Shown here: positions 3,982 to 56,432 of the stretch, in pieces
How positions within the stretch are numbered: position 1 is the stretch's first letter
Layout of the letters: each line of letters opens with the position of its first letter
Source: a virus
Taxonomy: Duplodnaviria; Caudoviricetes
Length of the DNA stretch: 64,000 nucleotides
Reading direction: 5' to 3' (one strand)
IMG/VR virus record: IMGVR_UViG_3300005366_000001
Span: 1,411-65,410 of that record
The notes under the pieces: generated by a model
Told to the model about the DNA's origin: nothing
What the model saw: the letters and a program-made list of their open reading frames with translations, nothing else
Database searches by the model: none
Position numbers and translations under genes: made by a program

Positions 3982-4569
3982 TTGGCCGAACAGCGCACAG
4001 GGATGGGCGTAGACGCGATGGGCGGTCCTGTGATCGACCCGACAAAGAACGTCCTCGATCTAACCAACGCGGCCAACAAGCGGCAAGACGATCTGCGCGA
4101 GATGTACAACCGCTACATTGTGGCGGAGATAGGGCGGATAGAAGAAACAGTCAAGCGGGTTGAACAGCTTTCAGATCTAAGGGCCGAACATGCCCGAGAA
4201 GTGAATCTGATTCACCAAAGCCATGATAGAGAAATCCACAAGATGGAGCAGGACAAGCTGGCAGCGTTTCGAGCCAGCGATGAAATGGCCCGCATCACAG
4301 AGGCAAACAGAAGTCTTGCGGCGATTCAGGTAGTTGAGCGTACTCTGAACTCGACAGCAACCGCACTAGCGAGTCAGAACGCAGAAAACAACGTTGAAGT
4401 AAATCGCAGGCTGGCAGCACTTGAAAAATCAAGCTATGAAGGTGCGGGTAAAGGCACGGGCGCAAAGAATACAGTCGCCTATGTAGTGTTGGCAGTTGGT
4501 TTACTTGTTTCGCTGATAACAATCGGATCAGTAATAATAGCGATCGCATTCGCAATTCGCACAAAGTAG
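3982..4569 (+). CDS. Coiled-coil protein with C-terminal transmembrane helix (lysis-module candidate)
   Basis: Long helical region followed by VAYVVLAVGLLVSLITIGSVIIAIAF; GGAG RBS. Confidence 0.7.
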   Translation: MAEQRTGMGVDAMGGPVIDPTKNVLDLTNAANKRQDDLREMYNRYIVAEIGRIEETVKRVEQLSDLRAEHAREVNLIHQSHDREIHKMEQDKLAAFRASDEMARITEANRSLAAIQVVERTLNSTATALASQNAENNVEVNRRLAALEKSSYEGAGKGTGAKNTVAYVVLAVGLLVSLITIGSVIIAIAFAIRTK

Positions 4570-27976: not shown

Positions 27977-28149
27977 ATGATGAAGCCTTGTCAATAAGTT
28001 TCGGCATTCCACCGTGGGATCTGAAATACGTCGCCATTCACTATCAGGAAAGGCGGCGTGTTTATTTAATGGCCCGTTACGAGGCGCGAATGGAACTAGC
28101 AAAGAAGCACGAATGCAGTCCTGAGAAGGTTGTATTACCGGAGTTCTGA
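27886..28149 (+). CDS. Tail assembly chaperone GT extension (-1 frameshift)
   Basis: A AAA AAA slippery site; the -1 frame stays open to 28149 (FGIPPWDL). Confidence 0.75.
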   Translation, partial: KKKGGRGNRGDLGELAQWYKGTSRSRPDWVDDEALSISFGIPPWDLKYVAIHYQERRRVYLMARYEARMELAKKHECSPEKVVLPEF

Positions 28150-30692
28150 TGTCGATTGAGATTGGAAGATTAACAGCAGTCTTCGATGCTGACACGCGAA
28201 AGTTAGACTCGTCGCTAAAGGCGTCAGAGGAGCGCATTAAATCCCTCCGCGCAAACATAGCATCAATCAAAACGGACGACATCGGGTTTAAGTCACAACG
28301 AATAGCTGGCCTAAAGAGCTTGCTCGACAAGGCTCTCAGCGATCATAAGGCTCTTCAGGCCGCACAGAAGGCAACGGCTCAAAGCGCCAAGGCTATGTCA
28401 AACGACATGAAGGCGGCGCTTGATGTTATCTCGCCTCGTCTCGGTAGGCTGACAGAACTAGCAGGACCACTGACGGCAGTCGCGGTAGGGCTGGCTGCCA
28501 TTGCGGGGGTTGCAGTAGGTTTGTTTGAGCTCGCTAAGTCGGCCGCCAAAACAGGCGGTGATTTATTCGACCTTTCGCAAAAAACCGCTTTCACGGTTGA
28601 GACTCTCTCAGGTCTGTCGATTGTCGCAAAAACAACCGGATCGGATATCAACGGACTGTCTCCGTCTCTCGTAATCTTTCAAAAGAATATGGAGGCGGCT
28701 AGCGACGCCACCAGCAAGCAAGGCCGATTATTCCGCAGTTTGTCAATCGACACCCACGACAACGAGAAGGCTTTAAGACAGGCATTCGCCGCATTGGGAA
28801 GGATGCGTGAGGGTTCGCAGCAAACCGCGCTTGCAATGCAGTTGTTTGGGCGGTCTGGTAAGGACGTATTAGCAATCGTCAAAGAGACGAACGGCAACCT
28901 TGACGCAGCAATCAAACGATATGGCGACATGGGGCTGATCATCTCAACAGGGGCCGCAGCAGCCAGCGACAAGTTTAACGATCTACTAGAAGAGACAACC
29001 TTACAACTTGAAGCGGTGACGCGAAGCATTGGCATGGAACTGCTACCCGTTGTGACCGATGCGTTGCAAAGTATTTCCGCCGGCTTGCGAGCGAATAAAG
29101 ACGAATGGGCCTCATGGGGAACATCTATCGCCAATGTCATGCGCGGTCTTAGTGTGGCGGTGCATAGCGAACTCGGACAAATGCTTGGTCGCATCTCAGA
29201 GTTTAGTATCAAGTGGCTATCTCTAACGGGCTTAATTGTTCAGGGTCTTGGTGCGCTTGGTGCCGGCGCTGACAAGCCCAGCGAGGATTTCTTTGGTCCG
29301 GGTGGTGCTGGACGCGGTGGAAGAAAGACCCTGCCCGGCACGCCTGAATTTAAGGCCGCTCAACGAAGATTAGGATCTGATCTTCCAAGCCTAGCAGGCG
29401 GCGGAGGCAAGAAAGGCGGAGGTGGTGGCGAAGATCCGGCAAAGACGGCACAGCGAATTGCATCGCTTCAGCTCGAAGCGGTGATTAATGGGTTAAAGGC
29501 CGAACAGGAAGCAAATAGACGTGCTCTGGATCTTCGTCGTCGTGACTTCAACGATTACGCGAATCGCTACATGGTAATTGAAAACCGTCGCCATGATGCG
29601 GTGATAGCTGGACTTGATAAGGAAAAGGGGGCCGCGGAGAAGTTAAAGAAGGGTCGCGAAGTTGCGTTACAGGAGATCGCAAACAAGCGCACAGAAGAAA
29701 ACACGACTCACGAGCAAAACCGAAACAAGGTACTGGATGAGCGTGGCAAAATTCTAGATCAGATAAATGACTTCCTCCGCGATCAGGATCGGGAAATCTC
29801 AGGGCTGACAACTTCAACCGATCAGTGGGATCAGGCATATCAACAATTAGTTGACACGCTGAAAGAAGAAGGAGTCACGCTTGAGGAGAATACTAAAAGC
29901 CGCATTGAATCAAATATCGCGATACTCAAAGAAATCGATCTCGTAAAACAGCAAATTCGTGTACGTCAGGTATTGAAAGACTCAACTCGTGATCGCTTTG
30001 AAACCAGAGCAGGAAGAGAAAGACCGCCGTGGATTGATCTTGGTGGAGGCTCTACCGTGGGAGGTGAGCCAGCAACAACCACTAGACCACGTATCGCGAC
30101 TGCGGACGAACAAGTCATGCGTGACCAGCTAGAAAGAATCCGCGGACGAATGCGCGATCTCGGGTTTGAATTAACTGACATCTTTGCTCAAAGTGTAGGC
30201 GATGGATTCAATCGAGGAATCAAATCAGGACTCGAAAGCCTCTCGCTTGGCTTACTGCGCATAGTTGAGGATGTCTTTCTGAGACGGATGGCAAAAGGAC
30301 TCGGAGATCTACTCGGTAACATCGGAACGGGAAGCGATGGGGGTGGAGGATTCTTTGGCGGACTACTGAAATCTATACTCGGTAGCGTAGCAGGAGTCCG
30401 CGGCGGCGGGTCTGCTGGCGGATTAGGAACCGGGATCGCTGGTGCTATCGGTCGTGATTCTGGTGGTCCTCTGTGGCCTAAGCAACTTTATAAAGTTCAC
30501 AAAGATGAATACATTGTGCCGACAGCTCCGGGGTTTGTGATACCAAAGGGCGGCATGGGCCAGCAAACAGTTGTTAATAAATACTACACAATCCAATTAC
30601 CGCCTGATTCGCGTGGTAGCTACAACTCGCCCCGATCCAAACGCCAACTCAGTGAGACTTTGATAGCAGCGTTAGAGGCTTCCAAAGCATAA
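28149..30692 (+). CDS. Tape measure protein
   Basis: 847 aa, Ala-rich helical, AMQLFGRSG, C-terminal RDSGG. Confidence 0.9.
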   Translation: MSIEIGRLTAVFDADTRKLDSSLKASEERIKSLRANIASIKTDDIGFKSQRIAGLKSLLDKALSDHKALQAAQKATAQSAKAMSNDMKAALDVISPRLGRLTELAGPLTAVAVGLAAIAGVAVGLFELAKSAAKTGGDLFDLSQKTAFTVETLSGLSIVAKTTGSDINGLSPSLVIFQKNMEAASDATSKQGRLFRSLSIDTHDNEKALRQAFAALGRMREGSQQTALAMQLFGRSGKDVLAIVKETNGNLDAAIKRYGDMGLIISTGAAAASDKFNDLLEETTLQLEAVTRSIGMELLPVVTDALQSISAGLRANKDEWASWGTSIANVMRGLSVAVHSELGQMLGRISEFSIKWLSLTGLIVQGLGALGAGADKPSEDFFGPGGAGRGGRKTLPGTPEFKAAQRRLGSDLPSLAGGGGKKGGGGGEDPAKTAQRIASLQLEAVINGLKAEQEANRRALDLRRRDFNDYANRYMVIENRRHDAVIAGLDKEKGAAEKLKKGREVALQEIANKRTEENTTHEQNRNKVLDERGKILDQINDFLRDQDREISGLTTSTDQWDQAYQQLVDTLKEEGVTLEENTKSRIESNIAILKEIDLVKQQIRVRQVLKDSTRDRFETRAGRERPPWIDLGGGSTVGGEPATTTRPRIATADEQVMRDQLERIRGRMRDLGFELTDIFAQSVGDGFNRGIKSGLESLSLGLLRIVEDVFLRRMAKGLGDLLGNIGTGSDGGGGFFGGLLKSILGSVAGVRGGGSAGGLGTGIAGAIGRDSGGPLWPKQLYKVHKDEYIVPTAPGFVIPKGGMGQQTVVNKYYTIQLPPDSRGSYNSPRSKRQLSETLIAALEASKA

Positions 30693-30693
30693 G

Positions 30694-31419
30694 ATGGCTA
30701 TACTCTTCGATGAGCTATTGTTTGATTCTTCCCTCTTGACCGAGGAGTCGGCAGTTGGTTCGCCTGAGTATGCGAACACAATGATTCGCAACCCCGCAAC
30801 AGGGGTTTATAAGACTAATGTCAATCGCTACGACTTTCAGAACGTTTGGAATATCAACACGAACCTCTTGAGTCCGGCACAGCTTGACTACTTCATTGAG
30901 TTTTGGGCAGGGGGGTTCGGCTCAGCTTATGGGTTTCGCATCCGGATCATCACCGACTTCTATATGATCGATGAAGTGATTGGGACGGGTAATGGCTCAC
31001 AGACCGTCTTCCCGATCATCCGCACTTACACGCGGCCGGGCGCAAGCCATAACTATCAGCGGAGGATCATCAAGCCAGTCGTAGTTCCCTCGCCTTTAGG
31101 TTCTAGTGTGGCTCTGTTTGAAGCGAACGGAACAACGAATCGGATTATTCCCAGCGCACTTGGGGCAGCTTTAGGTGTGCCAGCTTTCACGGTGAAGCTC
31201 AATACGACACCAACAACCGCGTACACTATTAACAACACAACAGGCGTGATCACTATGAACTCTGCGCCGGGTGCAGGAGTGAGCGTAAAAGTCTCCTGTG
31301 AATATGACACGGCTGTGCAATTCCTGAATAACTCATATCAAATGAAGCCGGGTGTTAGTTCCGACGTAGGCGGTTTGCAGTTGTGCGAGATACTACCCGC
31401 GACTCTTGGTATTACTTAA
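30694..31419 (+). CDS. Distal tail protein, DUF2460/GTA-like
   Basis: GSPEY, GSAYGFR, GTGNGSQTVF, RRIIKPV, APGAGV...CEYDTAVQF. Confidence 0.85.
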   Translation: MAILFDELLFDSSLLTEESAVGSPEYANTMIRNPATGVYKTNVNRYDFQNVWNINTNLLSPAQLDYFIEFWAGGFGSAYGFRIRIITDFYMIDEVIGTGNGSQTVFPIIRTYTRPGASHNYQRRIIKPVVVPSPLGSSVALFEANGTTNRIIPSALGAALGVPAFTVKLNTTPTTAYTINNTTGVITMNSAPGAGVSVKVSCEYDTAVQFLNNSYQMKPGVSSDVGGLQLCEILPATLGIT

Positions 31420-31426
31420 ATCCGTT

Positions 31427-32275
31427 ATGACCGTTTCAGTTTCCATGATCAGTCACCTAGCGTCCAATGTTTCGTTTATAGTTCCGATCTGGTCCATGCT
31501 TTCTGCCGATGGTACTCGCGCCTCATATTGCGCTCACACCCGAAACTTAACCTACAACTCACTCGCCTACACCGCCGCTCCCGTCGAGCCCTCCCGTTTC
31601 TCTCAAACTCTAGGACTCGACGCCAACCACGTAGAACTCTTTGGGGTATTTGATGACATCGTGACGGAAGAAAACCTACAAGGTGGGAAGTGGAAGAACG
31701 CAGAGATCGTGTTCGAGTACATTGCATACGATCCTGCAACTGGCGCAGCAAGCACAACTGTTATCGGATCAGTCGGGAAAATGAAGGGGCAAGCGGGAAA
31801 GTTTTCAATCAATAACGGATCTTTCAGGATGGAGTTTAGATCGCTGTCGGATTTGTTGAATCAAGAAATAGGAGAGCTCACGAGTCCGATGGCGCGTAAT
31901 CGGCAACTCTCGGATCTGGTTTCTGACGTTGCGCCCTACACGTTTGCCCGCACAATTACCGCGTTCACCGATCGTCGCAACTTCACAGTCAACGGCACCG
32001 CGCAAGTCAACGACTATTTCAAGTACGGCAAGGTGACTTTCACGAGCGGCGCTAACAACGGGCGCTCAATGGAAATTAAAGCCAGCGTTGGAAACGTGAT
32101 CGAGTTACAGCTTCCAATGTTGGGTGTAATCGCCATCGGCAATACCGTCTCACTTGTTGCCGGGTTTGATGGTAGCAGGGAGCAAGCGAGAGACAAATTC
32201 GGCGCAATGGAAAACTTTAATGGTGAACCGGACTTGCCCGGAATTGCGCAAGCGATCCTGAAGTATCCAGAATGA
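31427..32275 (+). CDS. Baseplate hub, DUF2163/GTA-like
   Basis: GKVTFTSGANNG, AGFDGS...KFGAMENFNGEPDLPG. Confidence 0.85.
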   Translation: MTVSVSMISHLASNVSFIVPIWSMLSADGTRASYCAHTRNLTYNSLAYTAAPVEPSRFSQTLGLDANHVELFGVFDDIVTEENLQGGKWKNAEIVFEYIAYDPATGAASTTVIGSVGKMKGQAGKFSINNGSFRMEFRSLSDLLNQEIGELTSPMARNRQLSDLVSDVAPYTFARTITAFTDRRNFTVNGTAQVNDYFKYGKVTFTSGANNGRSMEIKASVGNVIELQLPMLGVIAIGNTVSLVAGFDGSREQARDKFGAMENFNGEPDLPGIAQAILKYPE

Positions 32276-32279
32276 GTGA

Positions 32280-32376
32280 TTTTAAGCAGGAGACAGGTGA
32301 TCAGCCTGTTTGTCCGCTACCGTGACGGTCTGTTGGGCGCTCCTGCTAAGTCGCCCCGCGGATTTGAACCGCAATC
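32280..32376 (-). ncRNA. Putative structured antisense RNA with a T-arm and an acceptor/T-like helix
   Basis: TATAAT at 32388-32383 on -; GCGG-UUCAAAU-CCGC; AGCAGGAG/CUCCUGCU helix stacked on ACAGG-CUGAUCA-CCUGU. Confidence 0.6.
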
Positions 32377-32391
32377 AAGTTAATTATACCG

Positions 32392-32892
32392 ATGTCAACC
32401 ACACTTGCACAACGAATAGTCAGTGAAGCGGAGACGTGGATCGGCACCAGATATCAAGAACAGGGTCGTCTGAAATTCCAAGGCGTTGACTGCGTTGGCT
32501 TCATTTCCGAAGTCGCCAAAGGCGCTGGCATTAAGACCGTCGTTATTCCGAGTAACTATACGTCGAGCGGCGACGGAACAGTGATGCTTGGTTTACTTCG
32601 TGAACACATGACGATGGTAGCAACCGAAGACATGCAGGCCGGTGACGTCCTGGCCTTTTGCGATCAGGCGCTACAGGAGCCCGATGTGCCGCGGCATTTG
32701 GCATTCGTGCAGGAAGTAACACCAAAGACTGCTTTCATCATTCACAGTTCTGAGCACGGAGTTAGAAGACACCGGATAGATGCGGCGTGGCGTCGGAGAA
32801 TTCATTCAGTGTGGAGAATCAAAGAAGACACAGATCCGAAGATTCAAATCGCCCCTAACGCATTTATTCCGTTAGACGCGTTTGTTGAGTAA
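32392..32892 (+). CDS. NlpC/P60 tail-associated peptidase
   Basis: WIGTRY..QGR...GVDCVGFI (Cys), PRHLA (His), IIHS. Confidence 0.9.
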   Translation: MSTTLAQRIVSEAETWIGTRYQEQGRLKFQGVDCVGFISEVAKGAGIKTVVIPSNYTSSGDGTVMLGLLREHMTMVATEDMQAGDVLAFCDQALQEPDVPRHLAFVQEVTPKTAFIIHSSEHGVRRHRIDAAWRRRIHSVWRIKEDTDPKIQIAPNAFIPLDAFVE

Positions 32893-32906
32893 TCGAATGA
32901 GAAACG

Positions 32907-33014
32907 AAAAAAGCAGAGCGTTGGCCCTGCTCTTTCCGGCAGGCGTGTTTGCCGATTTCACCAGATCAGCCGCGCGCAGCCGATCACGGGACTTGAACCC
33001 GTAGACTCCTGCTC
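32907..33014 (-). ncRNA. Circularly permuted tRNA-like RNA (YrlA-like topology) with its own promoter and terminator
   Basis: TTGAGT-16-TATAAT, then GCAGG, AGUCU, T-arm, closed 7-bp acceptor stem, UG, D-arm, CCUGC, then terminator hairpin and U6. Confidence 0.8.
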
Positions 33015-33031
33015 AATGAAATTATAGACGC

Positions 33032-36000
33032 ATGATCGAAGAACTCAAAGAGAAATGCCAAGCCCTCGCGATCCGACAGCGCAAGGATCTCGAAGTGCGC
33101 AAGCGCGAAGAACTTGAATCCGCTCTTGAAGAGCACAGGGTTGCCGATCCCTTTAGCAGCACGATCCTGATTGGTCTCTTAGTGTCCTCTGCCGTTTCTG
33201 CGGCCTCCTACCTGATTTCAGCCGCTTTTGCTCCTAAGACTCCCCGTCAACAGCAAGGTAAGCTAACAGGCTCCTTACAACTTCAGAATTCCGAGCAGGG
33301 CATATTCATACCCGAAATCTACGGAGGAAGCCCTACAACGAGTTTGGTTGCCGGGGCTAACCCTACCTACCAGAATCTTGCAAACGTCACTTCAGGGGCA
33401 AATGGGAGCATAACAAAGACCTCTGGAGGCACAACCTGGAACGCGGGCGCAAGTCATAACGTCGCTATTACGGCCGGGCAGGACGCCTTCTTTCAATTCA
33501 CGGTAGGCACCGGGTACGCAACTGCGGGGTTCACGTTAGATTCAAGCCCGACCAGCGGAAATACTGACTTTCTGTTTGCGATTCAATGGAACCCGGACGG
33601 TTCAATCACAATCAAGTACAACTCAACTCAATTACTCGGGGCTGTAACTACCTACGTGGCGGGCGATGTCTTTCGACTAGAATTGCGATCTGGCAGATTC
33701 AGACTTTACAAAGGTTCGGCTGAGATCGTGCCACCTAACTTTATCTTCCCTTCTCCAAGCTATCCACTCTACATGGGGATTGCCATGCAGTTTATTGGGG
33801 CTGGCATCTCTGCCGGCAAGGTTCAGATCGGATCCATTGGCGCAGCACCGAACTCAGGTCGAGGCGGGATTAAGGTTCCAGCGATCATTATTTGGAGTTC
33901 GGGAATACGAAAACTAGTCACGACAACTCAAGTCGCCACAGGTGGAGGTAAAGGATTCGGACATCATACGCAGACCGTTGATAACATTACTTACAACATC
34001 GACCTTGGATTAATGTTTGGGCGTGGCCCGAACAGCCTGATCCGTCTCTATGCCAACGCCGACATCCTGATAGATCAATTCTCTCAATCGCCTAATCCCT
34101 CGGGCGTTTACGATCCGACTGTTGGCCCTGATCCTGATTACGATCCGAAATTACCGCCTGACCCAACACTGAATCACATGCCGTCATTCTTGCGCATCGA
34201 TGGAGACATTCCATTCGACGGTGACAATGTAGGCACGGGAACAATTCAGGGCGGTGGGTCTGGCTTTGCAATTTATCCCGGCAATAACACTCAGCAACCC
34301 GATCCAACGATTGAAGCCGACATAGATGGAAAATTTGGAGCGGGATCTACGCCTGCCTATCGGAACCATTCTTTAACAGTGCTCTCAACTCTGTCGTTGT
34401 CACGCTGGGGTGGCGTCGTTCCTAACATTACTGGAGTTTGGGAACATGAGACCTTCAGAACGCTTGATTTGATCTACGCCTCGTTATGCGATCGCGTGGG
34501 ACTATCAAGTACCGATTACGACTTCTCGGATATTGAAATCGCATCCCGCGGCTTATTGATTTCCGGCCGTCCCTTTCAGCCAAAAGAGATTATCGGCTCT
34601 CCCGATCTGCAACTGGCCTATAACTACTTCGTCACTGAAGCGGATGGTCAGATTGTTGGTTACACCGAAGGCAACGAACCGTCCATCACTATTCCTGATA
34701 CAGAGATTGGATGGCTTGAAGGCGATGCGGATTTACCAGACATCGCGCCAGAAGTCGAGTCGATGATAGCTTCTGAAATCAGTCTCCCGCGCGAGGTGCA
34801 TGTCAAGTCACTGGATCCTGACAAAGACTGGGAACCAAATACGGCGAGCGCAATGAGACAGATCACCGATGGCTCGAAAGTCGAATTACTGGAAATTCAG
34901 ATCTGCCAATTATCGGATGAGCGCAGAGAAACTGCACAGCGAAAACTCTATCGTGACTATGTAGCTGGAACTGCTCACAAATTCACTCTCCCGTGGACCT
35001 ATCTCTATTTGCATCCCGGTTACAAGATCACAATTACCCGAGCTGAAGGCTTCACGCATGTAATGAGGCTGACTTCTATTTCTGGAGGGATCGGAATTCT
35101 TGAGTGTGAAGGGATCGCGTTAGAGCCTGAGACATTTAATCAACCCGCAAATGGAGTCTTTCCGCCCGGTTACATTCCACCACAACCTATCCCTGCAATG
35201 ATCGTTATGTCGATGATTGACTTGCCTCTATTCCGTGAGGCTGACGCAGGTAAACTAGGCTTTTATGCAGGCGGCACACCGCGCACAGGCGTTAATCAAT
35301 CGTTTCAAGGATGGACCTTACAGTCCCAACGTAATAGCGTTTGGTCTTTACGAGCATCCTCAAACCTCCCTGCAACCATCGGGGCGGTTGTCAGCGCCAC
35401 TGCCCTATCAGACGATCCCACTACGTTTGATAATGTCGGTACGATTACGATCGATCTCTACGGCACCGACATGACCCTTTCATCCGTGACTGAGGCGGAT
35501 GTTTTAGTGGGTATAAACAAGTCCGCGATCAAGGACTTCATATGTGGGTTTAAAACCGCGACTCAGGTTGCGGGCTTTCCGAATCGATGGACACTCAGCG
35601 GGCTACTGAACGGACTGCACGAAACGTCCACACAAGTTGCCGGCGATTTAACCGGAGCAAGGTTTGTATTACTCGATCAAGCTGTAGTCTTTGTTCCCAC
35701 TACCGAAGATGAACTAAACCTACTACTTGATTACCGCGGGGTTGCTAATGGACAATCTTTAGGCGATGCGGCCACGTTTGAATTTGCGTGGACCGGGCAG
35801 ATCCTGAAACCCGAGCGGCCAACCTCAATCGATGGCCAATTCGATCTAGCCGATGGCTCTCTGTTGGCCGAATGGGAGAATGAGATCTTCCTAACCGCCG
35901 ATGATACTTACGACTTCATTGTCAGAAGTGCGGCGGATGGTGGCGGCTCAGTACTGTTTGGGCCGATTGAAATTAAGCCTTTGGATTTAGCGAGAGTATC

Positions 36001-36745
36001 CAACACACCGCCACTGTTAGCGATAGAACCTTCGAGTGATTATCTACCGCTAACCGCATATACATATGTTGTGCCCGGTGGCTTTGACGCGACTTATACC
36101 AAAGCACAATGGAATGGCACTATCACTCTTCCTTTGATTTCCGACGTCACGATTGCTGACAACTTCACGGTCCGGGGAGGCGCATTTCTCGAAATGCAAG
36201 TTCCCGATGCGTTCGATCCGCTTAACAATACTCTGGTTCCATCGACTTTCGGATTCATTCAGAAAGTGGCTGCTACTGTGTTTGCTTCGTGGTTATTTGA
36301 TCGGGAGCTGACCGAAGTTGGCTTGCCAGTAACCGCGCGCCCAATTGATGCTGTAGGGAGCGATTTCGATTACACAATCAGTTCGCGCGATCGATTCTCT
36401 ATTCACATTCAACCAGACGGTACAGTGACCTTTTACATTAACTATCAAGGCGCGATGTCCGAGCCTTGGTACATCTCGCCTAATCGAGTTGATGTAACAG
36501 TTCTGCACCGTGCTTACTATCTAAATGAGCCGGGCTATGAAATCGCTGGAAGCACGCTCACAATTGGCGCTCGCAACACACGCTTGCTTCGCAACGTGCC
36601 TGAATTCCGATACCCCGGCGATGAGCAAAGGAGTCACAATTCAGGATCGTTACCAGCCGCAGTCCATGTAGGCGTGCGCAGGCGATCATCGCATCCGCTT
36701 GGACCACCGAGCGACTGGTTATACGCTACATTTACGAGACCATAA
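33032..36745 (+). CDS. Central tail tip protein (GTA megatron / Phage-tail_3-like)
   Basis: IPEIYG, GGGKG, RLYANADIL, PAYRN, LPREVHV, GARFVLLD. Confidence 0.85.
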   Translation: MIEELKEKCQALAIRQRKDLEVRKREELESALEEHRVADPFSSTILIGLLVSSAVSAASYLISAAFAPKTPRQQQGKLTGSLQLQNSEQGIFIPEIYGGSPTTSLVAGANPTYQNLANVTSGANGSITKTSGGTTWNAGASHNVAITAGQDAFFQFTVGTGYATAGFTLDSSPTSGNTDFLFAIQWNPDGSITIKYNSTQLLGAVTTYVAGDVFRLELRSGRFRLYKGSAEIVPPNFIFPSPSYPLYMGIAMQFIGAGISAGKVQIGSIGAAPNSGRGGIKVPAIIIWSSGIRKLVTTTQVATGGGKGFGHHTQTVDNITYNIDLGLMFGRGPNSLIRLYANADILIDQFSQSPNPSGVYDPTVGPDPDYDPKLPPDPTLNHMPSFLRIDGDIPFDGDNVGTGTIQGGGSGFAIYPGNNTQQPDPTIEADIDGKFGAGSTPAYRNHSLTVLSTLSLSRWGGVVPNITGVWEHETFRTLDLIYASLCDRVGLSSTDYDFSDIEIASRGLLISGRPFQPKEIIGSPDLQLAYNYFVTEADGQIVGYTEGNEPSITIPDTEIGWLEGDADLPDIAPEVESMIASEISLPREVHVKSLDPDKDWEPNTASAMRQITDGSKVELLEIQICQLSDERRETAQRKLYRDYVAGTAHKFTLPWTYLYLHPGYKITITRAEGFTHVMRLTSISGGIGILECEGIALEPETFNQPANGVFPPGYIPPQPIPAMIVMSMIDLPLFREADAGKLGFYAGGTPRTGVNQSFQGWTLQSQRNSVWSLRASSNLPATIGAVVSATALSDDPTTFDNVGTITIDLYGTDMTLSSVTEADVLVGINKSAIKDFICGFKTATQVAGFPNRWTLSGLLNGLHETSTQVAGDLTGARFVLLDQAVVFVPTTEDELNLLLDYRGVANGQSLGDAATFEFAWTGQILKPERPTSIDGQFDLADGSLLAEWENEIFLTADDTYDFIVRSAADGGGSVLFGPIEIKPLDLARVSNTPPLLAIEPSSDYLPLTAYTYVVPGGFDATYTKAQWNGTITLPLISDVTIADNFTVRGGAFLEMQVPDAFDPLNNTLVPSTFGFIQKVAATVFASWLFDRELTEVGLPVTARPIDAVGSDFDYTISSRDRFSIHIQPDGTVTFYINYQGAMSEPWYISPNRVDVTVLHRAYYLNEPGYEIAGSTLTIGARNTRLLRNVPEFRYPGDEQRSHNSGSLPAAVHVGVRRRSSHPLGPPSDWLYATFTRP

Positions 36746-38356
36746 ATGCCACTAAGAGACAACGTTCCCGGTCCCGATACTTTTCTACCTAAACAGGTTG
36801 TGGCGCTCGCTGACGCAATCGATGTAGATATCGATGCGACTCGGAGCGCACTCAGCTTTACTTTCGATGGTACAGAACTTTGGGATAACGGTTATTGGAT
36901 CTCACAAACTGGATTCCATCAACATTCTCCACTGGCTCGTGCACTGTTCATTACCAAAGCTACAAGTGTTGATATTGACGTGTACGCCAACTTTACCCCG
37001 GATTCAGGGACAGCTATTCAAGTTTATGTCAACGGATTTCTACATGCTTCACCCGGTCTATCGTTTAGTTCGGGGGCTCAAACCATCACGCAATCACTAC
37101 CATCGGGATCAAAGTTAGTCACGATTGTTGGCGGCGTGCAGGCGATCATTAGCGGCTCGATCATTGGTACTTTTCTGATTGGGTGCGAGTTCAATCAGCC
37201 AGCTTTGCAAATCCCTCCCGAGGCCCCATCTCGTTTACTGGTTTATGGTGATTCAACCTCTCAGGGTGGAGGGGGTGGAGGTACAGGGAAGAATGTTGAT
37301 ACGGCATGGCCCACTCAGTTTCGAATGCTTTCTACCCGCTCAATAATCGTGGAAGCAGCATCGGGCCGGGCGCTTCATGACGATGCGAGTTTAAGTACTC
37401 CACGCGCAGCCTTTGTTGCCAAACTGGTAGCGATGAATCCGGCGTCTATTCTCTTCCTGATCGGAACTAACGATCACGGAGCCAATGCCTGGAGTGCAGC
37501 CAGTTTCGGCACAGCTTATGCGGCGACAATCGATGATCTCCATACGGCACTCCCGAATATAAGAATCTATTGCATGACTCCTTTGTTCAAAGCAAACAGT
37601 ATTGAAGGCGCAAACGGTTCAGGAAATAATTGCGAGGATTATCGAGAGCAGATTCGGACTATTGCCGCAGCGCGGGCTCCGTGGGCAGTCCTGATCGAAG
37701 GCACTGCGATACTCGGAAAAAACGAGATGCTGAGCGAGTCAAGCACGTGGCTGCATCCTAACGATCTTGGAAATCGCAACCTTGCTTTGTACGTTGACCG
37801 CTTTCTCAGTGGCTCCGACTCAGTAAGGTTCACTCCCGATCCCTTCAGCACTACCGCAGACGTGGTATGGGCTAACACCGCGAACGTAGCAACTACCGGA
37901 AACAGTATTCAAAAGAATGCAGGCACTGACGGGGCGGCAGATGCCGGAGGGTTTTCTACCAAAGCCGTTGGACGGGCGCCTTGGTTCGTTAGCATGAAGA
38001 TTACCGAGACGAACAAAACTAGAGTCTTTGGTGTCTCAAGTACAAGTACGGGAATAAACATCGCCAATATCTTGTACGGCTTTAACATCTTTTCTACCGG
38101 CGCACTGTTGCTGTGGGAGAACGGCACTGGTTACGAATCAGGCGGACAGGCGTATTCAGCAAATGATGTTTACCAAGTAAGATCACCCGATGGAGTAAAT
38201 GTCTATTTTGTGCGGATTCGCAGCGGAGTAGTAACAGTGTTGCGCAAGGCTTCGATACCGATCACGCCTTCAATGTATCCTCTTTTCGTTCAAGCAAACA
38301 TCTTAGGATCCACAGGAACGATCACGGACGCTAAGATTCATGGGCTCTTGCAGTGA
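36746..38356 (+). CDS. Tail spike / receptor-binding protein with SGNH esterase and lectin-like domain
   Basis: VYGDS, ASG, IGTND, LHPN blocks; C-terminal beta domain. Confidence 0.8.
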   Translation: MPLRDNVPGPDTFLPKQVVALADAIDVDIDATRSALSFTFDGTELWDNGYWISQTGFHQHSPLARALFITKATSVDIDVYANFTPDSGTAIQVYVNGFLHASPGLSFSSGAQTITQSLPSGSKLVTIVGGVQAIISGSIIGTFLIGCEFNQPALQIPPEAPSRLLVYGDSTSQGGGGGGTGKNVDTAWPTQFRMLSTRSIIVEAASGRALHDDASLSTPRAAFVAKLVAMNPASILFLIGTNDHGANAWSAASFGTAYAATIDDLHTALPNIRIYCMTPLFKANSIEGANGSGNNCEDYREQIRTIAAARAPWAVLIEGTAILGKNEMLSESSTWLHPNDLGNRNLALYVDRFLSGSDSVRFTPDPFSTTADVVWANTANVATTGNSIQKNAGTDGAADAGGFSTKAVGRAPWFVSMKITETNKTRVFGVSSTSTGINIANILYGFNIFSTGALLLWENGTGYESGGQAYSANDVYQVRSPDGVNVYFVRIRSGVVTVLRKASIPITPSMYPLFVQANILGSTGTITDAKIHGLLQ

Positions 38357-41242: not shown

Positions 41243-42382
41243 TCATGCTACACGGCGGTTACTATCGTTAAGGCTGGGTTTATAGCCCCAGCCATCGGTT
41301 AAGGCTGAATCCGAAATCAGGTGTCTAACCTTAACGAGTAAGTCTCTATACTGAGAGTAGGGGATCTCGCCTCGGTATTGCAGTTGGCCCACAACAATTC
41401 CCGCGTTGGCGTTCTTTAGCTCTGCAAAGGCTTTAATCTTGCGCTTGGAGTAAAGCGGCCTAACACGAGCTATAAAGTTTTCTAAGTCCGCTTTCTTTAC
41501 AGCAAACTCAGCCGCAAAAAGATCGGCTCGCTTTTCCATTTCCGGCTTGTCATTCATGTACTTGGCGTCCTCGCCGACAAGGTTTAAATCCAGGATCGGA
41601 TTGTCTTGTCCCTCATGGTGCTTAACGTGGTGCATTTCATGTAAGAGCGTGTGCCAAAACCCATCTATCCGATCTAATCGTTGCGAAAGACCGATCACAG
41701 GTGAGGTTCTATCTAGCCATGTACAAACGCCATCAATTCGCGTTGTCGGCAAAGCCTCAACTAAAACAAATCGAATACCGCTCTCCGAGAGAATACGCGG
41801 CACATGCCTGACTTCTTCAGGATCGCGCATCAACGGACGCAAGTTTTCCAGTGCCTCGTTGCAACGACGATCCGTGTATTTAACAGCAGGAACATATTGA
41901 GCCAATTGACGCACGCGAACCATCCACGCGACTTGCGCCGAAGTTGCTTCCATTTCAGACGCCGACTTTCTCGCCGCAAAATTGATCTTTGGCTGCTCTT
42001 CCATTGAGGCAATCCCTAAGAACTTGCAGATCCGTTCCTCTAACAAGCCCATGTCGGCGCTCGGCTCAATCCAGCCCCGTTTGATCATGTCTTTGACCGG
42101 ATAGTTTTCATAAAGCCGAAGCCGTTGGGTTACGCCCCCGTTATCGTGCTCAAGTTTCGTTAGGCGATAAGCGGCCTCTAACGCAAGCCAGTATTCGGCT
42201 GTATTACCTAGTGCGGTTGCTAACCCCTGAGCAACCTCAGGATTAATCGGCTTTGTGCCAGCCACTAAGCCGCTGACCTCGGAAGGGTGGCGTCCGAGGA
42301 TGAACGCTAGATCGCGTTGCTCCCAGCCGCGACGCTCTAGTTCTTCCTTTATTACTGAACCGGGAATAATGATCTCACTCAT
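41243..42382 (-). CDS. HigA-like Xre HTH fused to ImmA/IrrE Zn-metallopeptidase
   Basis: PGSVIKEELERRGWEQRDLA HTH; RIDGFWHTLLHEMHH (HExxH); EKRAD. Confidence 0.9.
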   Translation of the reverse strand: MSEIIIPGSVIKEELERRGWEQRDLAFILGRHPSEVSGLVAGTKPINPEVAQGLATALGNTAEYWLALEAAYRLTKLEHDNGGVTQRLRLYENYPVKDMIKRGWIEPSADMGLLEERICKFLGIASMEEQPKINFAARKSASEMEATSAQVAWMVRVRQLAQYVPAVKYTDRRCNEALENLRPLMRDPEEVRHVPRILSESGIRFVLVEALPTTRIDGVCTWLDRTSPVIGLSQRLDRIDGFWHTLLHEMHHVKHHEGQDNPILDLNLVGEDAKYMNDKPEMEKRADLFAAEFAVKKADLENFIARVRPLYSKRKIKAFAELKNANAGIVVGQLQYRGEIPYSQYRDLLVKVRHLISDSALTDGWGYKPSLNDSNRRVA

Positions 42383-42519: not shown

Positions 42520-42653
42520 TCCGGCATCGAAAAAGCCCTGCCAGTTGCTTGTAACAACCGACAGGGCCATTGAAAATCAAACGCGATTGCTCACGAGTGA
42601 CTTCCAGCGACTTCATTGTGAGCCATCGCCTAACCAAAAGGCAAGAGGACACA

Positions 42654-43910
42654 ATGACACTGACAGACCGCCAGATCACTGACCGCGAAATCAAAGCACT
42701 CCAGATCGCCGCTAAGACTCAACTGAAACGCAAAGGCAAAAGCAACGTGTGGTTGGTTCCATCGCAAGCGGGCCACGGCGAATATGAAGTCCGCCCCGAT
42801 CCGCAAGCGCCGCGATGCACATGCCCTGACTACGAATTCAGAAACGCTCGCTGCAAACATATCGTTGCGGTCGAATACGTTTTGATGCGCGAACAGAAAC
42901 CGGATGGCAGCACGGTTGTCACCGAGACAGTGAAGGTCACGCGACAGACTTATTCGCAGAATTGGAAAGCCTACAACTACAGCCAAACGCACGAGAAATC
43001 AGAACTGCAAGCGTTGCTGTATGAACTCTGCAAAAACATTCCTGAATCTGAGAAACCAAGAGGCAAGGGCAGACCGTCGCTATCGTTGCCGGACATCATT
43101 TTCTCCAGCGTGACGAAAATCTATAGCACGATCTCAGGGCGACGCTTTGACACGGATCTCCGCGACGCAAAGGCGCGTGGCTATCTGATGCGACTGCCGC
43201 ATTACAATTCAGTGTTTCGTTATCTCGAATCAGAAGCATTGACACCTTACCTCTACGAACTGATTACGCTGAGCGCAGCGCCGCTCAAATCGATTGAATC
43301 AGACTTTGCGGTTGATAGTTCAGGATTCAGCACCGGACAGTTTATGCGCTGGCTGGATGTCAAATACGGCACTAAGGAAGATCGTCGCCAGTGGCTCAAG
43401 CTACACTTAATGGTGGGCGTCAAAACGAACATCGTCACGAGCGTTGAAGTCAGCGACGGTTATGCACATGATTATCCGTTCTACAAAGGTTTGGTTGATC
43501 GCACGGCTGACAGTGGATTCAAGATGAAAGAGGTAAGCGCAGACAAGGGCTATCTCGGTGCAACGAACATGCTGGCGACGCTGCAACGCGGCGCGATCCC
43601 TTACATTCCATTCAAATCGAATTCAGTGCCGGACTCACGCGGAAGCTATGGCCCTAAATCAGAACTTTGGACGCGCATGTATCACTTTTACGCGCTCCAT
43701 CGTGCAGAGTTTCTACAGCACTATCACAAGCGGTCCAACATCGAAACAACCTTCCATATGATCAAGGCGAAGTTCGGTCAACGGCTGCGAAGTCGAACAC
43801 TCACGGCACAGATTAACGAGGCTCTTTGTAAGGTACTTTGTCATAACCTCTGCGTGGTGATCCAGTCCGTGCATGAACTAGGGATTGAAACAAACTTCGA
43901 GGCAGCGTGA
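42654..43910 (+). CDS. DDE transposase (IS4/IS5-like DDE_Tnp_1) with N-terminal SWIM Zn finger
   Basis: SWIM CTCPDY...CKH; AVDSSGF, KLHL, SADKGY, YHKRSNIETTF; GAGG before ATG 42654. Confidence 0.9.
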   Translation: MTLTDRQITDREIKALQIAAKTQLKRKGKSNVWLVPSQAGHGEYEVRPDPQAPRCTCPDYEFRNARCKHIVAVEYVLMREQKPDGSTVVTETVKVTRQTYSQNWKAYNYSQTHEKSELQALLYELCKNIPESEKPRGKGRPSLSLPDIIFSSVTKIYSTISGRRFDTDLRDAKARGYLMRLPHYNSVFRYLESEALTPYLYELITLSAAPLKSIESDFAVDSSGFSTGQFMRWLDVKYGTKEDRRQWLKLHLMVGVKTNIVTSVEVSDGYAHDYPFYKGLVDRTADSGFKMKEVSADKGYLGATNMLATLQRGAIPYIPFKSNSVPDSRGSYGPKSELWTRMYHFYALHRAEFLQHYHKRSNIETTFHMIKAKFGQRLRSRTLTAQINEALCKVLCHNLCVVIQSVHELGIETNFEAA

Positions 43911-56123: not shown

Positions 56124-56432
56124 ATGACGCTCAAGATGATATTGGAAATGAAGACCACGCAGGAGACGTTCACGAGCGAGCGTCAGTGGAAAGAGTCTGT
56201 CTTCATGGTACGAATGGGGCCGATACAGCGACGGTTTCATTTGGTCAGCCCCGATCATAATGCTACAGGGCCATACGGGCGAGTCTTTCACTCCTTATGC
56301 GGTACAGATTCCGGCGATTGGCGAAGCATTCAAGTCGGAGACTTACCGTTCGGTACATGGTTGTGCGGCACATGCGCCCGAGTAGGAGTGCGGCGTGGGA
56401 TAATTGAGAAACAACCCGAGAAACAAAAATGA
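56124..56432 (+). CDS. Hypothetical protein
   Basis: ORF 56091..56432; SLCG...LCGTC motif. Confidence 0.55.
   Translation: MTLKMILEMKTTQETFTSERQWKESVFMVRMGPIQRRFHLVSPDHNATGPYGRVFHSLCGTDSGDWRSIQVGDLPFGTWLCGTCARVGVRRGIIEKQPEKQK

Follow-up and report, generated by a model that had tools for sequence, protein, structure and literature searches.

Phage morons, a concept tied to HK97 and HK022, are autonomous units of promoter, gene and terminator that have entered the spaces between late genes. Integrating elements typically carry the T-arm and the 3′ acceptor strand of a tRNA gene. Antisense RNAs in phage late and tail operons have also been described, contrary to the earlier note, which knew of no description. 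One example is STnc6030 of the Salmonella prophage BTP1. STnc6030 is an antisense RNA against late structural genes, about 500–786 nt long, that lies within coding sequence, covers the 3′ end of one tail-related gene together with the 5′ end of the gene after it, and is expressed in the lysogen (PMC7067206). The same paper proposes that it pairs with the late polycistronic mRNA, leading to superinfection exclusion (PMC7067206).

The window (the whole 64,000-nt stretch of phage DNA that was analysed) holds two elements, E1 and E2, that can be set against these systems. Like morons, they lie between tail genes that abut in relatives, have a predicted sigma-70-type promoter of their own and, in E2, a predicted terminator, vary in presence across relatives and take part in mosaic exchange. 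Unlike morons, they are oriented against the late operon, their promoter adjoins the ATG of the next gene with the −35 box inside that gene, and their cargo appears non-coding; the mRNAs of the relatives' cassettes appear leaderless. With STnc6030 they share the predicted course against late tail genes, but the predicted RNAs are about 100 nt long, intergenic and T-arm-bearing, and belong to a phage without a sign of lysogeny. A full-text search of PMC and bioRxiv turned up no account of phage small RNAs that bear a T-arm and lie in the gaps between tail genes. On balance we lean to the view that E1 and E2 are independent moron-type accessory cassettes for antisense small RNAs.

Anatomy of the two elements

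Both gaps around the NlpC/P60 gene carry a promoter box, a T-arm and common motifs, so that the earlier description of two elements bracketing one tail gene holds, as does the placing of the boxes: each is a perfect TATAAT on the minus strand, immediately before the ATG of the next gene (Table 1). The two small RNAs are well-anatomised predictions.

Table 1. Coordinates of the elements and of the flanking genes (positions in the window).
Feature	Position	Strand	Remarks
Baseplate hub gene (DUF2163/BR0599 type)	31406..32275	+	left flank of slot 1; PF09931 1.1e-21, PF09356 5.2e-17
E1 cassette	32276..32391	−	116 nt, fills slot 1; in other relatives the genes abut or hold different cargo
E1 body	32285..32347	strand-neutral	8-bp inverted repeat AGCAGGAG/CTCCTGCT around two small hairpins
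E1 T-arm-like hairpin	32373->32357	−	TGCGG-TTCAAAT-CCGCG, 5-bp stem, loop UUCAAAU
E1 −10 box	32383-32388	−	TATAAT (ATTATA on +), 3 nt before NlpC ATG 32392
NlpC/P60 tail peptidase gene	32392..32892	+	PF00877 E 2.5e-4, under the curated cut-off
E2 cassette	32893..33031	−	fills slot 2
Predicted E2 small RNA	32903..33013	−	about 111 nt; predicted 5′ end 8 nt past the −10 box
E2 candidate intrinsic terminator	32905..32938	−	15 pairs, loop of 4, then T6
E2 T-arm-like hairpin	33002->32986	−	ACGGG-TTCAAGT-CCCGT, loop UUCAAGU
E2 predicted promoter	33021..33048	−	TTGAGT-16-TATAAT; 10/12 sigma-70 consensus, which may not be the host's
E2 −10 box	33021-33026	−	ATTATA on +, 5 nt before megatron ATG 33032
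Large tail-tip ("megatron") gene	33032..36745	+	right flank of slot 2; PF13550 1.4e-14, PF23666 1.7e-13

E2 has the makings of a complete, self-contained small-RNA gene, with a predicted promoter, structured RNA and terminator. Its −35 box lies in the first codons of the megatron gene. The predicted RNA is very stable (MFE −52.1 kcal/mol, z −4.20; none of 200 shuffles was as stable), and directly adjoining the T-arm is a 9-bp hairpin, two of whose pairs are G-U. Judged from where the NlpC gene ends in relatives, the insert probably starts near 32827; a C-terminal extension of 21 aa in NlpC is missing from seven relatives in the alignment. Besides its −10 box, E1 has a weak −35 box (TTGTGC, 18-nt spacer) within the start of the NlpC gene, and its promoter falls below the pass mark of a consensus scan. 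An 8-bp hairpin directly adjoins the T-arm, no terminator was found, and the minus-strand fold is not significant (z −1.72; 12 of 200 shuffles). The inverted repeat of the body pairs equally well on both strands. E1 is best described as a predicted promoter-proximal structured transcript without a terminator of its own. The earlier proposal that both RNAs run against the late operon gains from the promoter-like boxes and from the full anatomy of E2, and is weakened by the lack of a terminator in E1.

The inserts could instead function on the plus strand, as structures or processing sites of the late mRNA or as tiny ORFs that couple translation, a reading that we hold quite unlikely. On that view the AT-rich ATTATA would enhance initiation on the plus strand, and restored coupling would serve the NlpC and megatron genes, both of which lack an SD. 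Gap 1 does offer AGGAG, 4 nt and a GTG (32297) that opens a 28-codon frame with its stop 8 nt before the NlpC ATG, and gap 2 an ATG (32897) 4 nt past the NlpC stop with a 35-codon frame; frames of 28–35 codons are, however, unremarkable in gaps of 116–139 nt. On a longer stretch around E1 the plus strand also has a small advantage in folding (z −3.05 vs. −2.20 on the minus strand). The fold over 32900–33020, on the other hand, is far weaker on the plus strand (−39.8 kcal/mol, z −1.77) than on the minus strand (−52.1 kcal/mol, z −3.26), where alone the T-loop consensus is legible. Two G-U pairs of the 9-bp helix of E2 turn into A-C on the plus strand, and the single substitution between lineages in an E1 helix keeps a G-U pair on the minus strand but yields A-C on the plus. 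The T6 terminator faces the minus direction, and a plus-strand terminator within the late operon would be harmful. Finally, the plus-strand reading offers no explanation for the fixed spacing of 6–9 nt between box and minus-strand ATG in six relatives.

As the earlier note had it, neither downstream gene has an SD: a GGAG-like box is absent from the 25 nt upstream of the NlpC and megatron ATGs. Since the same crude test misses such a box in about half of this phage's genes, its absence at these two is not special. Of the nine TATAATs in the window, six fall outside ORFs, a class that makes up 18% of the sequence (binomial p = 0.002), an enrichment that is inflated because intergenic DNA is AT-rich. 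Depletion of the hexamer was dropped as an argument for promoters, as it is only mild (9 observed vs. 13–15 expected). The consensus scan of 31400–33800 gave no excess of promoter-like sites (2 vs. a shuffle mean of 1.8) or of terminator-like sites (2 vs. 2.5).

Variable slots and their cargo in relatives

In most of 80 relatives from IMG/VR the genes that border the slots abut or overlap. Of 13 close-clade contigs, 5 have cargo in slot 1 and 8 have abutting genes there; for slot 2 the figures are 2 and 9 of the 11 that could be assessed. (The NlpC relatives came from an alignment search; a single-protein query gave none.) Both slots of our phage therefore hold insertions between genes that are adjacent in relatives.

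What fills the slots elsewhere bears on the boxes. Six distinct cassettes (L003, L002, L158, L155, L012 and slot 2 of L007) carry TATAAT, 6–9 nt and a minus-strand ATG, a spacing that suggests leaderless accessory genes. Since the same box recurs at this distance in six cassettes, we read the minus-strand TATAATs as promoters, and by this pattern they appear to behave as real ones. In L003, L002, L155 and L158 a junction identical to that of E1 precedes the minus-strand ORFs. The products of L002, L012 and L003 are homologous, and the distant pair L002/L012 is conserved in the minus frame only; no Pfam or PHROG family was found for the cargo proteins, and their Atlas matches all fall below 0.9. 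Unlike these small protein genes, the cargo of E1 and E2 is in all likelihood non-coding: no ATG-started ORF follows either promoter. Past the 12-nt junction neither element shows likeness to the relatives' cassettes.

E1 recurs in one other lineage only, that of the L007-type phage, where 114 of its 116 nt are identical; an exact 21-/22-mer search of IMG/VR returned one other contig. The shared patch, which takes in the last ~60 nt of the hub gene, is 95–98% identical, whereas the hub gene there is 40–70% identical. The contrast indicates that recombination has recently carried E1 between two diverged phages. No further copy of E2 was found by exact 21-/22-mers in IMG/VR, by BLAST or with a promoter-plus-T-loop pattern. 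Because the L007-type phage has E1 in slot 1 and a gene for a 67-aa protein, not E2, in slot 2, and no second E2 was found, the elements are independent rather than paired, and the "two-RNA system" of the earlier note does not hold. Apart from the L007-type E1 contig, the promoter-plus-T-loop pattern matched three AT-rich stretches, all of them unrelated and devoid of a T-stem, and a similar pattern had no matches in three complete relatives.

The placing of transcription in the lysogen by the earlier note is not supported either. The phage record, 65.4 kb long and with direct terminal repeats, represents a complete genome, and a scan of 48 ORFs, a subset of the phage's total, brought up no integrase family. 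No GenBank phage matches it at the DNA level, and its hub protein is at most 33% identical to those of the nearest cultured phages. The genome also carries a TnpB gene and a DDE transposase, with flanks that show no likeness to E1 or E2.

Tolerance of such mobile DNA would suit a further reading, rather unlikely in our judgment, in which the inserts are inert leftovers that kept a promoter: decayed or truncated cassettes, or captured 3′ fragments of tRNA genes such as old attachment-site cores. The lack of a terminator and of a significant fold in E1 is in keeping with decay, as is the narrow distribution, with E1 in two lineages and E2 in one. Yet outside the junction the inserts are unlike every cassette of the relatives, and E2 keeps a strong predicted promoter, a very stable fold and a candidate terminator. 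As sources of captured fragments, tRNA genes number zero in this phage, in the three complete relatives and in three further related loci, and the scan mentioned above found no integrase. In one genome each of 185,579 species no identical 24-mer turned up for either element, as far as the pattern used could detect one. Two independent relics, both with a perfect T-arm directly past a promoter, would moreover be a large coincidence.

An attP core derived from a tRNA gene was rejected on like grounds: to the missing integrase family is added that none of the 62 matching genome stretches is identical to E1 or E2 (the closest differs from E2 at one position), for a pattern that sees only variants mixing E1 and E2 letters and a genome set from which the host may be missing. 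E1 and E2 do resemble tRNA genes and attachment-site 3′ fragments in having a T-arm followed by 7 nt, possibly an acceptor 3′ strand. They differ in lacking a cloverleaf and an identical tRNA 3′ end among those searched, and in lying inside a tail operon.

T-arms, common motifs and likeness to tRNA

Both T-arms have a 5-bp stem and keep all of G53, U54, U55, C56, R57, A58 and C61. A T-arm pattern with a 5-bp stem has three matches on both strands of the whole window, two of them E1 and E2, and 20 matches per 1.0 Mb of relatives' loci, of which five are redundant copies of E1. At this rate two same-strand matches within 255 nt of gap are not due to chance; the coincidence is far beyond it. The three motifs listed in the earlier note were confirmed on the minus strand of both elements, in the order given and together with a T-loop: AGCAGGAG (at 32347 and 33013), GGCTGATC (at 32306 and 32971) and CCTGC. 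The place of the T-arm in this order is not constant, however: AGCAGGAG comes after it in E1 but before it in E2. Put to the note's own question of chance, these words do less well than the T-arm. Two shared 8-mer blocks were equalled in 78 of 5000 dinucleotide shuffles and four shared 7-mer blocks in 25 of 5000, and 38 of 1826 other genome windows have at least two blocks in common with gap 1. The motifs other than the T-arm are above chance, but modestly only; BLAST detected no homology between E1 and E2, and the remainder of the two elements is unlike.

Of the earlier label "tRNA-like" only the T-arm survives. ARAGORN reports no tRNA gene in the window and Rfam no tRNA at gathering score or E<=10; upstream (5′) of each T-arm lies the promoter, in place of the cloverleaf arms. 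Other classes were tried and rejected. For tmRNA, including the two-piece form, ARAGORN finds none, and the T-arm of E2 gives a truncated match of 10.7 bits to the tmRNA 3′ end (gathering score 47). The tRNA-mimicking Y RNAs of bacteria and phages (YrlA; PMC4201824) are likewise small and non-coding, and a T-arm forms part of their tRNA-like module; E1 and E2, by contrast, are without a D-arm or an acceptor-like stem, no bacterial Y RNA (YrlA) match appears in Rfam, and no Ro/TROVE family occurs among the 48 ORFs scanned, a part of the total. Hfq-type small RNAs of phages or bacteria, such as SorX and the prophage anti-sRNAs (PMC4104026), share with E2 the succession of a structured 5′ portion, an unpaired stretch and a terminator hairpin with a U-tail. 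The likeness is one of generic architecture and not of membership: the 3′ half of E2 scores 23.3 bits against the SorX-like family (RF02784; gathering score 46.6), and the match appears only in a 103-nt search, being missing from the listing of a 1.1-kb search.

Next to the second hairpin the T-arm may form a stable 5′ module like the acceptor/T-arm half of a tRNA. The RNAs might then act in trans as mimics of that top half, titrating a tRNA-recognising host factor (candidates would be a T-arm enzyme or a defence nuclease that targets tRNA) with no pairing to mRNA. The retention of every conserved T-arm position in both elements agrees with such mimicry, and apart from these elements the slots contain accessory genes whose function is unknown, as is typical for host-directed cargo. 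The second hairpin, of 8–9 bp and joined without a linker, would give 13–14 stacked pairs against 12 in tRNA. A 24-nt stretch of E2, made up of the T-arm and the 7 nt behind it, agrees in all but one letter with the 3′ end of a real tRNA gene (anticodon read as TGT). However, there is no free 3′ CCA, 5′ acceptor strand, D arm or anticodon arm, and Rfam yields only truncated matches of 12–15 bits, to the tRNA-like mascRNA. No defence partner was identified, and the two RNAs are unlike outside the T-arm. Mimicry of this kind is distinctly improbable to us, and a tRNA-decoy role is speculative. Very unlikely, too, is that E1 and E2 represent an undescribed kind of accessory RNA, each a promoter-proximal mimic of the tRNA acceptor/T-arm half with its T-arm stacked on a closed helix of 8–9 bp, which would be delivered as swappable antisense cassettes in the tail-module slots and serve as decoys for a tRNA-recognising host defence or tRNA-processing factor.

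Proposed antisense RNAs against the late operon

For the reading that we prefer, moron-type cassettes for antisense RNAs, we infer transcription, the 5′ ends and every functional step from the observed anatomy, distribution and mosaic transfer. Each cassette, E1 at hub|NlpC and E2 at NlpC|megatron, occupies one variable slot of a GTA-like tail module, faces backwards there and would supply a host-type sigma-70 −10 box adjoining the ATG of the next tail gene. Both promoters would fire against the late operon, with host polymerase transcribing the two RNAs independently of late transcription. Each RNA would open with a copy of a tRNA T-arm stacked on the second hairpin and could form a perfect antisense duplex with late mRNA, beginning some 20 nt ahead of the start codons of NlpC and megatron. 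Pairing may damp or time tail-tip expression or, alternatively, exclude co-infecting relatives with the same sequence, as for STnc6030. By analogy with that RNA, pairing with the late mRNA is a tentative and rather doubtful mode of action.

If the RNAs are real, the conserved GTA-like tail module of this soil/rhizosphere phage clade contains two defined hot-spots where phages swap backwards-facing accessory cargo driven by host promoters, RNA as well as protein. They would also be a natural case of the T-arm as an RNA building block outside tRNA, and a filled slot with TATAAT abutting an ATG and no ORF would provide a handle in the search for phage small RNAs. If pairing with late mRNA is true as well, the RNAs would join STnc6030 as the second case of control or exclusion at the RNA level aimed at tail genes. 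Among the DNA contigs of four runs only this phage appears, and one of the runs adds a more abundant L007-type relative that carries E1.

Two minus-strand elements in the tail module

The record is a complete 65,410-bp virus genome with direct terminal repeats, of which the window covers nearly all. Its GTA-like tail module harbors, in the gaps on either side of the NlpC/P60 gene, the two elements considered here: E1 between the hub and NlpC genes (slot 1) and E2 between the NlpC gene and the gene of the large tail-tip protein, or megatron (slot 2). The earlier note's observation is confirmed, as all the features it listed were found at the positions it gave, and its interpretation is supported in part. 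In E1, the TATAAT is followed by 9 nt, the T-arm TGCGG-TTCAAAT-CCGCG, GGGCGACT, AGCAGGAG, and, further on, GGCTGATC and CTCCTGCT. In E2, the order is TATAAT, AGCAGGAG, the T-arm ACGGG-TTCAAGT-CCCGT, GATCGGC and, further on, GGCTGATC and CCTGC, then a hairpin and T6. Both have an A at 8 nt past the −10 box with TTG just before it, and no ATG-started frame follows either promoter. The absence of an SD before the NlpC and megatron genes is real, yet about half of the genes of the phage also lack one by a crude test.

Window coordinates of the tail module, its two gaps and other features
Feature	Position	Strand	Remarks
847-aa ORF	28149-30692		probably tape measure, from its size and position alone; Pfam: none
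DUF2460	30694-31419
Baseplate hub	31406-32275		PF09931 + PF09356
Gap 1	32276-32391		116 nt; E1
Small frame	32297-32383	+
E1 TATAAT	32388-32383	−
NlpC/P60	32392-32892	+
NlpC C-terminal tail	32827-32892	+	21 aa
Gap 2	32893-33031		139 nt; E2
Small frame	32897-33004	+
E2 TATAAT	33026-33021	−
Tail-tip protein (megatron)	33032-36745	+	1237 aa
GDSL esterase	36746-38356
TATAATT	38401	+	just past GDSL gene
HTH_3 + M78 fusion	41243-42382	−	ImmA/IrrE-like
TATAATT	42514		upstream of transposase
DDE_Tnp_1 transposase	42570-43910	+	with SWIM finger
TATAAT	47000		intergenic
Sigma-70 region 4 protein	47242-48444	+	400 aa; 1.6e-12
TnpB-type gene	55248-56291	−	347 aa; OrfB_IS605 1e-25, Cas12f1-like TNB 6.7e-19

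The coincidence of T-arms in both gaps is strongly non-random: the pattern with a full 5-bp stem occurs three times in the window, two of these being E1 and E2, and 20 times per 1.0 Mb searched in related loci, where five of the 20 are redundant E1 copies. The other words shared by the elements exceed chance only modestly (of 5000 shuffles, 78 reached two shared 8-mer blocks and 25 reached four 7-mer blocks; 38 of 1826 other genome windows equaled the sharing of E2 with gap 1), and BLAST detected no E1-E2 homology. The TATAAT hexamer is only mildly depleted in the window, and six of its nine occurrences fall in the 18% outside ORFs of ≥100 aa (p = 0.002). Behind the TATAATT box that follows the GDSL esterase gene no ORF reaches 100 aa, and the box may belong to a further small transcription unit.

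Predicted RNAs and their relation to tRNA

E2 is a good prediction of a small-RNA gene. Its promoter, TTGAGT-16-TATAAT, agrees at 10 of 12 positions with the sigma-70-type consensus, and its terminator has 15 pairs followed by T6. The predicted RNA of about 111 nt folds at −52.1 kcal/mol (z = −4.20), a stability reached by none of 200 shuffles. Across the 2.4-kb region, promoter-like and terminator-like sites were no commoner than in shuffles. Since the 9-bp second hairpin contains two G-U pairs, and the plus strand over 32900-33020 folds far worse (−39.8 kcal/mol, z −1.77), the strand of E2 is fixed as minus. The small plus-strand frames, or structure in the mRNA itself, could instead be what the gaps provide, but this is less likely because E2 and the T-loops have strand-specific features.

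E1 is a plausible prediction of a small-RNA gene. Its −10 box is perfect, but its −35 box is poor and it lacks a terminator; its minus-strand fold has z = −1.72, and over a longer stretch the plus strand gives the slightly better fold. Of the two substitutions that separate E1 from a related copy, one lies in the helix beside the T-arm and would leave G-U on the minus and A-C on the plus strand, a single, weak pointer to the minus strand.

The description of the elements as tRNA-like holds for the T-arm of both and fails for tRNA identity. ARAGORN found no tRNA, no Rfam model reached its gathering score and none for tRNA was hit at E ≤ 10, and upstream of each T-arm lies the promoter, without a D arm or anticodon arm. 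An Rfam search starting at the T-arm gave only short truncated tRNA-like matches (mascRNA, 15 and 12 bits; tmRNA 3′ end, 10.7 bits). The 24-mer was also sought in one genome per species (185,579 species) with a pattern allowing the E1 or E2 letter at each position, to which the only near matches visible are mixes of the two. None of the 62 stretches returned was identical to either 24-mer; the closest, one letter off E2, lies inside a tRNA gene with the anticodon read as TGT. tRNA genes are absent from the phage itself, from three complete relatives and from three other related loci. None of the results supports the proposed role as tRNA decoys. The T-arm of each predicted RNA runs without a linker into a second hairpin (8 bp in E1, 9 bp in E2); the two would stack to 13-14 pairs, resembling the 12-pair acceptor/T-arm half of tRNA, although the stack is loop-closed and has no CCA end.

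The slots in related phages

Protein-anchored searches yielded eight loci with the hub protein, and 80 IMG/VR and 17 metagenome loci with the NlpC alignment. Tail genes in relatives by default are tightly packed, abutting or overlapping. Slot 1 is filled in five of 13 distinct close-clade IMG/VR contigs (two minus-strand ORF cassettes, two forward ORFs, and one E1 with a forward ORF), and slot 2 in two of 11 assessable ones, both with minus-strand ORF cassettes. With the metagenome contigs included, six different cassettes have a minus-strand ATG 6-9 nt after the same TATAAT: L003 (6 nt; 80 aa), L002 (9 nt; 129 aa), L158 (6 nt; two ORFs) and L155 (7 nt; ORF running off the contig end) in slot 1, and L007 (6 nt; 67 aa) and L012 (7 nt; 120 aa) in slot 2. 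This short, fixed spacing fits a leaderless mRNA that would start 7-8 nt past the −10 box. The proteins of these cassettes had no match in Pfam or PHROGs. Those of L002 (3791-4180, −), L012 (1735-2097, −) and L003 (1607-1849, −) are homologous, so that one family occurs in slot 1 of some phages and slot 2 of another; the second ORF of L158 also belongs to it. Because of this homology, and because the distant pair L002/L012 is conserved in the minus frame only, these ORFs are real genes. ATTATA before the start codon is absent from the more distant relatives that have gaps.

The promoter junction of E1 is identical to that preceding the L003 and L002 genes. E1 itself recurs, identical at 114 of 116 positions, in a single further lineage, termed the L007 type (L007, L010, L018, L161, L162). 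Identity around it is 95-98% over a patch whose start falls within the final ~60 nt of the hub gene, whereas the remainder of that gene is only 40-70% identical; this is a signature of recent recombinational exchange. A two-RNA system, as the earlier note had it, is contradicted by slot 2 of the L007 type, where a 67-aa gene replaces E2, and by E2 itself, no other copy of which was found in the sequences searched; the elements are therefore separate cassettes. At least one run contains an L007-type phage together with this one, the former at the higher contig depth.

Two further observations concern the insertion boundaries. The C-terminal tail of NlpC is missing from all seven aligned relatives, and the slot-2 insert probably starts inside the present NlpC end. 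In slot 1, L004 (3875-4111) and L007 (~4007-4228) have an inserted, homologous forward ORF of ~75 aa. On each side of it stands a copy of the initial ~20 nt of the NlpC gene, a duplication that marks the recombination boundary.

Possible action and genomic setting

From sequence comparison, our reading is that E1 and E2 would be moron-type antisense cassettes, inserted between late genes and transcribed by the host polymerase. The phage encodes a sigma-like protein, so late transcription may rely on other promoters, in which case TATAAT promoters of the host type would be active independently of it. Each predicted RNA is fully complementary to the late mRNA, beginning ~19-20 nt before the NlpC or megatron ATG and continuing outward, which makes antisense pairing the most economical action. 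Such pairing could set the timing of tail-tip expression or dampen it, or could act against co-infecting relatives with the same sequence. This follows the pairing model proposed for STnc6030 of the Salmonella prophage BTP1, an RNA that lies opposite an injection gene and the tailspike gene and prevents superinfection by BTP1 (PMC7067206). A host-directed role in trans, including mimicry of a tRNA half, is a live rival because the slots otherwise carry unrelated accessory genes.

For expression in the lysogen, which the earlier note thought probable, nothing was found in support: the genome has terminal repeats, and none of 48 ORFs scanned, a subset of the total, belongs to an integrase or resolvase family. 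The same scan gave YqaJ, RusA, NinG and a C5 methylase. The fused HTH_3 and M78 protein belongs to a kind of regulator that temperate elements often carry. The sigma-70 region 4 protein, downstream of an intergenic TATAAT, is a possible phage sigma factor serving later genes. The closest cultured phages infect Alphaproteobacteria (hub protein identity ≤33%), no GenBank phage matched at the DNA level, and DNA of the phage occurs in soil and rhizosphere metagenome runs.

The flanks of the TnpB-type gene have no similarity to E1 or E2. The transposase gene, the only plus-strand gene in a block of minus-strand ones, probably represents an insertion sequence. Finally, palindromic hexamers are strongly avoided across the window (CAGCTG, CTGCAG and GTCGAC occur twice each against 37-38 expected, and several others are similarly depleted), which suggests restriction avoidance.
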